Shown: positions 34,801-37,800 of the stretch, one piece after another
Layout of the letters: each line of letters begins with the position of its first letter
Numbering within the stretch: position 1 is the stretch's first letter
Virus record (IMG/VR): IMGVR_UViG_2913112809_000004
Coordinates: 1-47,442 of that record
Origin: a virus
Lineage: Duplodnaviria; Heunggongvirae; Uroviricota; Caudoviricetes
Length of the DNA stretch: 47,442 nt
Strand: one strand, 5' to 3'
Position numbers: made by a program

Positions 34801-37800
34801 AGTGTTAATGCTTGAGCAGACAGTAAAAAACATCAATTCGCGCTTTGGCTGGCGCAACACCCGTAAGCTTCTTGGTTCATCACTGGGTGTAACAGCCCAA
34901 GGATTACCCCTTTTTATTGAACGTGTAAATAGTGTAGTTCAGCATAATCCCGACCTAAAAGACAGGATCGACGATTTCTGGAAAGGTTTAATTTTTAGCG
35001 GGAATCGATTACTTTCTATTTATAAAATCACCGATGAAGACGTAGCAAAATTACAAACAATTTTCACAAATCAGAAAAAGGACAATAGCCCCTTCTCAGA
35101 AAAATACCCAACGCCTTTATCCAGAGAGGAGCTGTTAGTTGCTGATACTGAGCTGCATTTTGCTGAACTACGTCAAGATATCATTCGTGACAAACAAATT
35201 GACACCGCTGTTTTTTTATCCAAAGCGTATTACACTGAAGTGATAGAACTTGACCCAACACATCTTAGCGATGCGGGTATGGAATTACGTGCTAATGGCG
35301 GAGAAATAAAATGCAAAACACGCCAAGTCACGCAATGCTTTAATACCATCATGCTAATGCCTGCAGAAAAAATATTAATTCTTACGATTGATTTATCTAT
35401 CCTTCCAAGAAGTGAATCACAGCCTCAACAATACCTTGTGGCTAAATTTATAAAAGAAGAAGCTGGCGTTATTTTAAACAATCCTCTTGAATTATTTGGT
35501 TCAATACAAGATCTTTACGAAAAAGTAGATGGCAGAATTTCTCATGTATCTTTTATCACCTCAGATGGCAATACAAGTTCTTTAAAACTCAAACCAAGTC
35601 AAAAGTGTTTGCGTCAAGATGTTTACCATCATAGTGGAGAGTCCGCAAGCCCAATACTGACAAAGTTTAAGTTGGGAAAAGTTTGGGATTTACCACAAAA
35701 TTCTTCACATATTTTATCAGTAGAGTTAATATTACCAGGGAAAAGGACGATGCTTGATAATCCTAGAATTAGGTTGCATGAAGCAATTGCGAAGAACTGT
35801 AACAATATTGATTCGATTATATTTATTGTTGAAAAAATATTGGATTCTGTTAAGTCCTGTGAAGAGAAAAGAAGAGCGAAATCATCAGGCCATAAATGAA
35901 AAAGAGTATATATCACGACATTATCACGCAAATAGAGCAGGATTTTAATGATCCTGCTCGCCGTGTGTGTCGTGATCTTTTTCTTTTTCTGGTTAGTAAA
36001 GATGCTAAAAATATCAATCACTTTACATACAAAACTCTTATCAATGGTTTGACCTATCTAACTGACACGAAAGATGACTATATCCTGCTAATAAAAGCAA
36101 CAGATTATTTATCTAGCTATAAAGCACATCTATTGGATATGCATTTTCAATACATTGATAATTTAACGGAAGAACCAATCCCAGTTGAAGATGATCTTAT
36201 TTCCTATGCTTTAGACACAGGAAGTTTTTACCATCCAGAAACTGGCGAATTGGTTGAAAATTTTAGCCAGTATCTTTATCCATACTTTACTCCTTCGAGT
36301 CTTTTGGAGAGTCTGCATGAGTGATGTAAACATCTGTACTGCAGATCTTCAATCATTAATTAGAATGGATCCTGAATTTAGGGGAATGGTTCAAAGAAAA
36401 TTAGCTGCAGACAAAAATATTTTTGTAAAGCAACTCTATGAAGATTTAGACGACGCTATTCAGAATTTAGAAAATGACAAACACTTCTATCAAGATGCCA
36501 AGTGGGGAGAGGACGAGCTAACAGCGTCGATCAAAAATTTCCTGAAAGGTAGGTTTTATGATGTTGAACATGATACTCAACATGGCGGTCACGTTGATTT
36601 ATTAGTTAAACATCAATTCGGAAAATTCGAATGGATTGGTGAAGCAAAATTATGGAGAGGCCCCAAGTCTATTCACAATGGCTGGATTCAGCTAACCGAA
36701 CGTTACGGCACGGGTACGTCACGTGACGATCATGGAGGAATTCTAATTTATATAAAGTCTGACAAATCAGCAGTAAAATTCAATGAATGGAAAGAATTTT
36801 TCTCTACGACTGTTTCGGACGCAGAAATTGAAGCGGAAGGCTCTCCCCTCCGCTTTAAGAGTATCTCAAAGCATCCAGCAACAGCGCTTCCATATCATGT
36901 AAGACACATGGGAGTATCCTTATACCATTACACTGGTAAAAAATCCGCAGACTCTTAACTGGTAATTGCTATATATCCGCTCAGAAAACCTAAGGCTTTT
37001 TGCAATCTTTTACGAATTGTTCCATCTGAACATCCTTGTTGCTTTGCAATAGCACGAAGAGATAAACCAATCACGAAATGAGCAACAATTAACTCATATT
37101 CTTGTTGCTTATATCTTTCTAACCTAAGGATACTAATGTCAATCACTCGCCCTTCATCATTGCTGCACTGACGACGTAATTTTTTGCCATGAGGAAAAAT
37201 ATTTTTTATATTTATCAGCTATTTCCTGCCAATATATAGAACTATTACCAGCCACAACCCAAGCCCCCCAACCGTCTAAAAGCTCACATATATCAAAATT
37301 ACTATCCATCTGATTTTTATTCTCTATTTTGAAATAACCAAGCAGCATTCTAGCCATTGTTGTTATTTCTATACTCGTAACTGATTCATAGGCATCAGGA
37401 GAAATAATTCTCCCATCACTTAATGCCCTATCACTAAGATTTGCTATTTCCAATAATCGTTCTTTCGTTATTTCCATTATTATCTCCACCGCCCTTTCGG
37501 GCGGTCTCCTTATTATTTGAGGGTACAGAACCCCCTCCTGTTAAGGATTTAATAAAAATCACTTCTGATTTAATTTTTCAGTGTTTTGTTGTCAGGTGGT
37601 TTATAGCCTTTATTCTTCGGCCTTATTTCTCAGCCATACACAAACCGGGCCATCTTCGGTGTCATGTATCGAACCAATAAACCATCCATCGCCCTCTGGT
37701 CGTTCCGGTTCCCATGCAGAAATATCAGCATCACACGCATCAAGGTCAGCACATCCTTCGTCTCTGAAGCAGAGGACGCATTGAAGATTATTTTCCGCCA

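Follow-up and report, generated by a model that had tools for sequence, protein, structure and literature searches.

What would a phage, or the bacterium that hosts it, do with three genes that are read against the direction of their larger neighbours? The question is raised by the IMG/VR virus record IMGVR_UViG_2913112809_000004, one complete provirus record of 47,442 bases that was analysed at its full length and is called the window below. The provirus is a lambdoid prophage. The three genes, here called g1, g2 and g3, form a cassette that an initial annotation of the window had put forward as a candidate novel defence or abortive-infection system. The parts of that proposal that could be examined here were all borne out. 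We lean slightly toward an answer of this kind, that the cassette is a prophage-borne anti-phage system of three components, in which g1 would be the sensor, g2 the adaptor and g3 the nuclease. Its defence phenotype is, of course, one that we infer. The genes, as found by calling open reading frames (ORFs), are these:

34808-35899 (alternative GTG start at 34802), + strand: g1, 363 amino acids
35896-36324, + strand: g2, 142 amino acids
36317-36958, + strand, ATG start: g3, 213 amino acids

The initial annotation had described three coupled ORFs of 365, 142 and 214 amino acids, joined by ATGA-type overlaps. The ORFs are there, on the + strand; the first and third are slightly shorter than had been given. 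For g1, a length of 363 amino acids is most likely, because an AAGGAAG Shine-Dalgarno sequence sits 6 nucleotides 5' of the ATG at 34808 and because the RefSeq start of this gene in E. coli E2348/69 is that same ATG. The overlap between g1 and g2 is indeed ATGA, while that between g2 and g3 measures 8 nucleotides (ATGAGTGA).

Two further features of the annotation hold as described, the strand and the composition. The sizeable flanking ORFs, from approximately 32.2 to 40.1 kb, all lie on the - strand, opposite to the cassette. The operon is 37.0% GC, compared to 47.0% for the whole window, and 0.29-0.33 GC at third codon positions. Only 3% of windows of equal size are as AT-rich.

The three proteins

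The AlphaFold model of g3 (predicted local distance difference test, pLDDT, 90.9) places two N-terminal helices, at approximately residues 8-29, ahead of a nuclease domain that begins at approximately residue 33. By the model and by structure comparison, the core of that domain has the alpha-beta-beta-beta-alpha-beta order of the restriction-endonuclease-like fold, with a helix at 65-78, strands at 82-88, 91-98 and 105-112, and a helix at 116-130. The exhaustive aligner VIA-align finds OkrAI (Z 9.4, root-mean-square deviation (rmsd) 3.8, 144 residues aligned), BglII (Z 8.9), BamHI (8.8), BstYI (8.7) and McrC (8.1). Nearly all of its top 50 matches are PD-(D/E)xK nucleases, with CdiA-CT toxins, Can2/Card1, HamA and NucC at later ranks. 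A Foldseek search of g3 against the PDB gave no match at expectation values (E) up to 0.001; the fold is visible only with the exhaustive aligner.

Across 93 distinct homologues of g3, the residues E65, G91, D94, E109, K111, G122, Q125, L126 and Y130 are invariant, and E65, D94, E109, K111 and Q125 were so already in a first set of 30. This gives a catalytic layout with an acidic residue in the first helix, D on the second strand and ExK on the third. The initial annotation had read a PD-(D/E)xK signature from two short motifs, GHVDLLVKH and EWIGEAK, which begin at residues 91 and 105. That reading was right, because E65, D94, E109, K111 and Q125 stand in canonical positions and do not vary; the predicted structure, as compared with solved ones, supplies the nuclease fold to go with it. 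On this model we assign g3 with confidence to the PD-(D/E)xK nuclease superfamily, and it looks like an active member, which would be metal-dependent.

Databases of families say less about g3. It falls in PHROG 9664, whose function is listed as unknown. Its match to the PADLOC candidate PDC-S54 is weak and below threshold (E 0.0016), covering 63 residues of a 410-position profile and the catalytic core only. Sequence profiles compared with the PDB gave matches at the level of chance only, and Rab21, suggested in this way for g3, was set aside.

The second protein, g2, is acidic (isoelectric point 4.7) and adjoins g3 in every complete cassette. Prediction of a complex between the two gave an ipSAE of 0.74 (0.73, 0.74 and 0.84 in separate runs), where the best control gave 0.00. 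Of 80 solved complexes, 58 reach the mark applied to this score, as do 2 of 110 mismatched pairs; these counts hold roughly here, where our own alignments were used. In the model, the partner has a pLDDT of at least 86, and the runs have at least 54% of their contacts in common. It places g2 on residues 8-38 of g3 and a few residues of the core, away from the catalytic residues named above. The N-terminal helices of g3 are thus the predicted docking site of g2. Neither protein has a hydrophobic window of 19 residues (maximum Kyte-Doolittle means of 0.57 for g2 and 0.16 for g3).

Two read-through fusion proteins were seen in Logan assemblies of Enterobacter-type alleles. One, which is rare (P0142, 352 amino acids), fuses g2 to g3 through a change of frame by one nucleotide inside the overlap. 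The other (P0129, 347 amino acids) combines a C-terminal piece of g1 with g2 and the first part of g3. Both may be natural variants or errors of assembly. The first was discounted as evidence that g2 and g3 interact, since it arises from that single-nucleotide frame change.

The model of g1 (pLDDT 82.6) shows two domains. Residues 1-61 form a basic, helical, SAP-like domain that superposes on residues 464-530 of FAN1 (Z 7.6, rmsd 1.7) and on the N-terminal domain of PIAS1 (Z 5.3), both of which we take to be SAP-type DNA-binding modules. Approximately residues 63-353 form a fold of the RdgC/RexA/Iml3 type. Here, Foldseek against the PDB finds RdgC (2owy, E 1.3e-5, prob 1.00), and VIA-align finds RdgC (2owl, Z 9.2, rmsd 7.6, 220 residues aligned), the kinetochore proteins Iml3 (Z 7.9) and CENP-L/N, a Corynebacterium epimerase, and lambda RexA (8twq, Z 5.5). 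In BFVD, a library of viral structures, the best matches of g1 are phage RdgC-like proteins (E 3e-6, prob 1.00). The fold was found in three independent libraries, and the match to RdgC spans approximately 220-350 residues.

The structural relatives found for g1 are the same as those listed for RexA in the paper that describes its structure, and DNA binding is non-specific in both RexA and RdgC (PMC11077077). By analogy to these, g1 would be a DNA-binding protein that forms a dimer of the RdgC/RexA-type clamp fold. Its single hydrophobic stretch falls in beta strands that the model predicts with confidence.

The family of g1 comprises 498 clusters at 50% identity in a library of 1.8 billion proteins, nearly all of them free-standing proteins of 340-400 amino acids. 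It corresponds to PHROG 12777, again of unknown function. In six loci from proviruses and metagenome contigs (L083, L095, L133, L139, L159 and L161), g1 is split into two ORFs, and g2 and g3 are intact, which suggests that the sensor gene occasionally decays.

The initial annotation had recognized no motif in g1 or g2, and Pfam, NCBIfam and PADLOC give no family for either; modelling has since given a fold for the first and a predicted docking for the second. For g2 there is only PHROG 11490 (function unknown), and a search of a language-model feature atlas with g2 returned unnamed clusters only. In the three databases just named, none of the cassette's proteins falls in a housekeeping, phage structural or known defence family.

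Distribution and variant loci

To survey the distribution of the cassette, g3 was used as the anchor, all surrounding ORFs were profiled, and only loci with enough upstream sequence were counted. In 138 of the 149 loci, the triad g1-g2-g3 keeps its order and lies on one strand; this holds for 43 of 51 species genomes, for 55 of 56 viral contigs and for 40 of 42 metagenome contigs. Adjacent genes within it usually overlap or nearly abut. The triad occurs in Gamma-, Beta- and Alphaproteobacteria, in Cyanobacteria, and in one genome of the Flavobacteriaceae. Homologues of each protein are found in Enterobacterales, Vibrio, Shewanella and Photobacterium; all are annotated as hypothetical, which is also the RefSeq label for the three genes themselves.

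The allele in the window is rare, being present at full length in 14 of 5426 complete E. coli genomes, including the enteropathogenic E2348/69. An allele 59% identical to it is common in prophages of E. coli and Salmonella. In lambdoid prophages of E. coli, this second allele lies antisense between Q and the holin gene (6478-8636 in each of loci L006-L008). That interval is the moron site that holds the Shiga toxin genes in Stx phages.

Other carriers are not lambdoid. In a Mu-like phage, the cassette lies between Mor and pRha, beside a HipA gene. It lies in an island with a resolvase and an integrase in Shewanella, in an integrase island beside rpoD in Vibrio parahaemolyticus, and beside a transposase remnant in one metagenome contig. 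Thus, the cassette is mobile as a unit, found in lambdoid and Mu-like prophages, in integrase, resolvase and insertion-sequence islands, and in the chromosomes of distant phyla. The initial annotation had suggested from base composition that the cassette was acquired separately from the phage backbone, and its travel as a unit among such different carriers agrees.

The strongest functional hint for the cassette comes from loci where the triad is not complete. There are 11 of these, and 8 are variants in which a domain has been swapped:

L024, 3349-6549: NACHT-HEAT-g3 fusion
L037, 2929-6546: NACHT-HEAT-g3 fusion
L051, 3112-6549: NACHT-HEAT-g3 fusion
L028, 4934-5740 plus 5608-6546: NACHT-HEAT-g3, broken into a NACHT ORF and a HEAT-g3 ORF
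L067, 4191-5909: EF-Tu-g2, then a g3 homologue
L069, 4209-5909: EF-Tu-g2, then a g3 homologue
L198, 131-1399: EF-Tu-g2, then a g3 homologue
L060, 4109-5995: FtsZ-g2, then a g3 homologue

The four NACHT-HEAT loci are cyanobacterial. Here, a nuclease of the g3 type is the C-terminal module of a protein of 1066-1205 amino acids, with no g1 or g2 nearby. These fusions show the g3 domain in what, judged from domain architecture, would be service as an immune-type effector. The fused nuclease begins at position 27-32 of the g3 profile and is therefore without the first two helices (approximately 30 residues). Taken together, these boundaries and the model of the g2-g3 complex suggest that the element of g3 that would bind g2 is just the part missing from the nucleases fused to a receptor.

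In the other variants, it is g2 that has acquired a partner. In Litoreibacter, in Sulfitobacter and in one metagenome contig, a g2 domain is attached to the C-terminus of a complete EF-Tu (domains 1-3), and in Asticcacaulis to that of the GTPase core of FtsZ. In all of these loci a g3 homologue follows directly and g1 is absent. The fused EF-Tu copies share 88-89% identity, and the fused FtsZ 86%, with the housekeeping versions of their own genomes. They are not themselves the housekeeping genes, because the genomes with EF-Tu fusions hold two further normal copies of tuf each, and Asticcacaulis holds a normal ftsZ. Two of the EF-Tu and FtsZ loci adjoin genes for an AAA_21/AAA_15 ATPase, a UvrD-type helicase and a HATPase_c_3 protein, domains that are typical of defence. 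Another adjoins an IS110 transposase.

Why would a near copy of an elongation factor or of a division protein be joined to such a module? By analogy, these copies would be baits, resembling host proteins that phages often bind or modify and wired to a nuclease. The model for this idea is the integrated decoy of plant nucleotide-binding leucine-rich repeat (NLR) receptors, which we have carried over to bacteria. More generally, g2 and g3 might be a portable module of adaptor and nuclease that executes a response, where the sensor can be exchanged, being g1 in most loci, NACHT-HEAT in some cyanobacteria, and, in some alphaproteobacteria, a recent duplicate of EF-Tu or FtsZ from the host as integrated decoy. 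This generalization is tentative, and we hold it to be possible rather than probable. As an alternative, the fused EF-Tu and FtsZ copies may act not as decoys but as dominant-negative effectors; for the cell-division domains of other conflict systems, such a role has been put forward (PMC7159879). A search of the literature for EF-Tu or FtsZ baits in bacterial immunity found no published description.

Proposed mechanism, rivals and known systems

In the mechanism that we propose, a promoter of the cassette's own would drive it in the lysogen, in the direction opposite to the late-regulatory genes of the phage. The sensor g1, as a dimer with the RdgC/RexA clamp fold and a SAP-like N-terminus, would survey DNA, as the analogies to RdgC, RexA and GAPS4b suggest. 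Its trigger would be a state of DNA specific to infection, such as free ends, breaks, or intermediates of replication and recombination. The adaptor g2 would grip the N-terminal helices of g3 and tie it to the sensor, presumably through a contact with g1. Until the sensor reports infection, g3 would be kept harmless. Once licensed, it would act as a metal-dependent DNase that degrades the DNA of the phage, or also that of the cell, in which case the infection would be abortive.

Expression was examined in RNA-seq assemblies. The operon is present in those of four studies, and in two of these it contrasts with its flank; as contigs, they give neither strand nor ends and no dependable level, and carry-over of DNA may contribute to them. 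In one run, a contig of 2214 nucleotides, identical to the window from 34607 to 36820, has a depth of 266, compared to 0-2.5 for the adjacent Q fragment. In another, depths of 475 and 155 over the operon compare to 4-6 downstream. In the remaining two runs, a single contig spans the operon and beyond, and so gives no contrast. These data agree with expression of the operon from a resident prophage.

The contigs that cover the operon begin at approximately 34607-34610 in three runs. This position was considered as a start of transcription and rejected, as it coincides with the edge of an abundant hok/sok RNA. In one assembly, the region 34494-34690, which holds the hok leader and a presumed Sok antisense RNA, has a k-mer depth of approximately 26,000-198,000, hundreds of times that of the operon.

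Several observations weigh against a defence system with an RdgC-type sensor, and the limits of the RNA contigs given above are among them. PADLOC-DB 2.0, Pfam and the NCBIfam defence families have no match for g1, g2 or g3. Among the genes closest to the cassette in 57 genomes, no clear excess of defence genes is seen; searched against Pfam and PADLOC, 86 neighbouring proteins include Uma2 nucleases, Ser/Thr kinases, resolvases, integrases and housekeeping genes. The match of g1 to RdgC is moderate, since the Z of 9.2 comes at an rmsd of 7.6 and a TM score of approximately 0.3, with a different orientation of domains. The RdgC family of Pfam, PF04381, matches neither g1, at E up to 1, nor anything else in the window. 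Neither Pfam nor NCBIfam matched a family in 70 relatives of g1. Comparison by hhalign of g1 profiles built from 28 and from 70 sequences with lambda RexA gave a probability of 0.2%. Phage RdgC-like proteins, moreover, usually serve recombination rather than defence. Last, a consensus scan of the + strand upstream of g1 found no strong match to a sigma-70 promoter.

What else might the cassette be? The closest validated analogue, as compared by description and by a feature score, is GAPS4, a 2:2 complex of a predicted ring subunit for double-stranded DNA and a PD-(D/E)xK subunit, in which DNA damage triggers degradation of the genome (PMC13748975). The cassette might then be a distant, rearranged member of that family, where g1 is the GAPS4b ring, g3 and g2 are a split and permuted GAPS4a, and the whole is a suicide DNase of a known kind, triggered by DNA damage. 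The two systems share a ring-type subunit with a PD-(D/E)xK phosphodiesterase, a logic of sensor and effector rather than of toxin and antitoxin, a similar summed size (approximately 718 amino acids here, and approximately 80 kDa for an a+b pair), and carriage on mobile elements (the GMT island for GAPS4), including in E. coli and Vibrio. Language-model features also put g1 near clusters named "GapS4b family protein" (0.92, 198 of 256 features, with PF26110 on 26% of the members), but this score comes with no alignment or E-value, and scores of at least 0.9 arise 4 to 10 times per 100 for shuffled proteins. GAPS4 has, however, two genes, or a single fused one, with the nuclease first and no separate gene for an adaptor, whereas the cassette has three with the nuclease last. 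The motif of GAPS4a, HGxD...SxK, is N-terminal; that of g3, HGGHxD...EAK, lies in the middle of the protein, and its ExK holds an E109 that is invariant in the 93 homologues, with no S. RefSeq calls all three proteins hypothetical, and NCBIfam matches 0 of 70 relatives of g1. We therefore give membership in GAPS4 a small probability. Only slightly smaller is the probability that we would give to a restriction-like complex, of type IV or free of a methylase, that cuts foreign DNA and does not kill the host, with g1 as a clamp for loading or recognition and g3 as the endonuclease. The nearest structures to g3 are, of course, the type II enzymes OkrAI, BglII, BamHI and BstYI, together with McrC; g1 has DNA-binding folds; and the cassette has no methyltransferase. 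Yet no nucleoside triphosphatase (NTPase) and no domain for reading modifications was detected, and related nuclease modules are joined to NACHT receptors or to EF-Tu and FtsZ copies. This points to an effector that is triggered, not to constitutive recognition of a sequence or a modification.

The neighbourhood of the cassette invites two other explanations. It adjoins hok, an addiction-type gene, its genes are translationally coupled, and g2 is a small, acidic protein predicted to bind g3. It might therefore be a toxin-antitoxin module that stabilizes the prophage, with g3 as toxin, g2 as antitoxin and g1 as regulator. However, the predicted interface lies on the N-terminal helices of g3 and off its catalytic residues, and a protein that elsewhere is fused to large EF-Tu and FtsZ modules is more readily seen as an adaptor than as a labile antitoxin. 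A conserved g1 of 363 amino acids has, in addition, no place in so simple a scheme, and we consider it improbable. The cassette might also belong to the phage's own DNA metabolism, pairing an RdgC-like modulator of RecA or recombination with a structure-specific nuclease for use in lytic growth or induction. Among viral structures, g1 matches phage RdgC-like "recombination-associated" proteins best, and nucleases of the nin region are near (a gene of the YbcO family in the window, RusA in relatives). This we hold to be very improbable, given that the cassette is antisense to the early and late genes around it and unusually AT-rich, that RNA assemblies from two studies cover it and not the neighbouring phage gene, that the allele is as rare in E. 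coli as noted above, that the cassette is found in integrative islands and chromosomes as well as in phages, and that relatives have its modules joined to NACHT, EF-Tu or FtsZ.

A sensor-adaptor-nuclease system against phage, which is the explanation toward which we lean, resembles parts of several known systems. Like lambda Rex, the cassette is encoded by a prophage and seems to be expressed in the lysogen, and the sensor RexA has a two-domain fold of the RdgC type (PMC11077077). The effector RexB, however, is a membrane channel, and that of the cassette would be a soluble nuclease; g1 also lacks sequence similarity to RexA and has an additional SAP-like domain at its N-terminus. Of the structures in the PDB, RdgC (PF04381) matches g1 best, as the phage RdgC-like proteins do in BFVD, but it works alone as an antagonist of RecA and not in an operon with a nuclease. 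With Avs and the bacterial NACHT (STAND) receptors, the likeness lies in the g3-type nuclease as the terminal module of NACHT-HEAT proteins. The cassette in the window has no NTPase, and its RdgC-fold sensor and its effector are separate proteins that would be joined through an adaptor. As to BamHI, BglII, OkrAI and BstYI, no solved fold is closer to that of g3 (Z 8.7-9.4 over 134-144 aligned residues), and the acidic catalytic arrangement is the same, but identity is only 9-14%. The cassette has no cognate methyltransferase, and g3 has an extra N-terminal element, predicted to be for docking.

What is new here are the protein families, the layout in three parts, and above all the exchangeable position of the sensor; defence by a nuclease coupled to a sensor is already known in kind. 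A search of the literature by accession, by PHROG identifier and by keyword found no paper on the cassette. A survey published in eLife in 2020 mentions a previously unreported clade of restriction endonucleases, and also FtsZ domains that occur rarely in NTP-dependent conflict systems; the identity of these with parts of the cassette could not be shown.

If the cassette is protective, it represents a widespread family of defence systems that current annotation tools miss. It would link the Rex-type fold for sensing DNA, which is old and unexplained, to a nuclease effector, and would stand beside GAPS4 as a second, independent sentinel of DNA integrity built from a clamp and a nuclease. The swappable sensor matters most. 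The fusions to EF-Tu and FtsZ would make integrated decoys in bacteria something that can be tested directly, and would reveal phage factors that target translation or division. In practical terms, prophage-borne systems of such a kind influence which hosts a therapeutic phage can infect, and a cassette triggered by DNA damage could alter sensitivity to quinolones.

Surroundings of the cassette in the window

The initial annotation had listed a Hok-like toxin, a 9-bp tandem repeat and a frameshifted second Q gene on the flanks of the cassette, and all are present:

34087-34136: perfect 9-bp tandem repeat (AACAAATAC, 5.6 copies), from a repeat scan
34161-34140, - strand: terminator-like hairpin, with the 9-bp repeat directly downstream
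34305-34457, - strand: hok, Hok toxin (PF01848, E 1e-19)
34655..34807, + strand: non-coding region upstream of g1, with the ribosome-binding site AAGGAAG at approximately 34796-34802, as read from the sequence
36955-37146 and 37157-37489, - strand: Q-family antiterminator (PF06530), split; the frameshifted second Q gene
32185-32856: a different Q-like gene (DUF1133/antitermQ)

The promoter of the cassette presumably lies within 34655..34807. The split in the Q gene, which inactivates it, is caused by one extra A in a run of A near 37205, as seen by comparison to the intact gene of 173 amino acids in E. coli E2348/69. The cassette, the frameshifted Q gene and hok may have arrived jointly, by recombination with another lambdoid phage. 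The 9-bp repeat itself yields a spurious ORF composed of LYLLY repeats.

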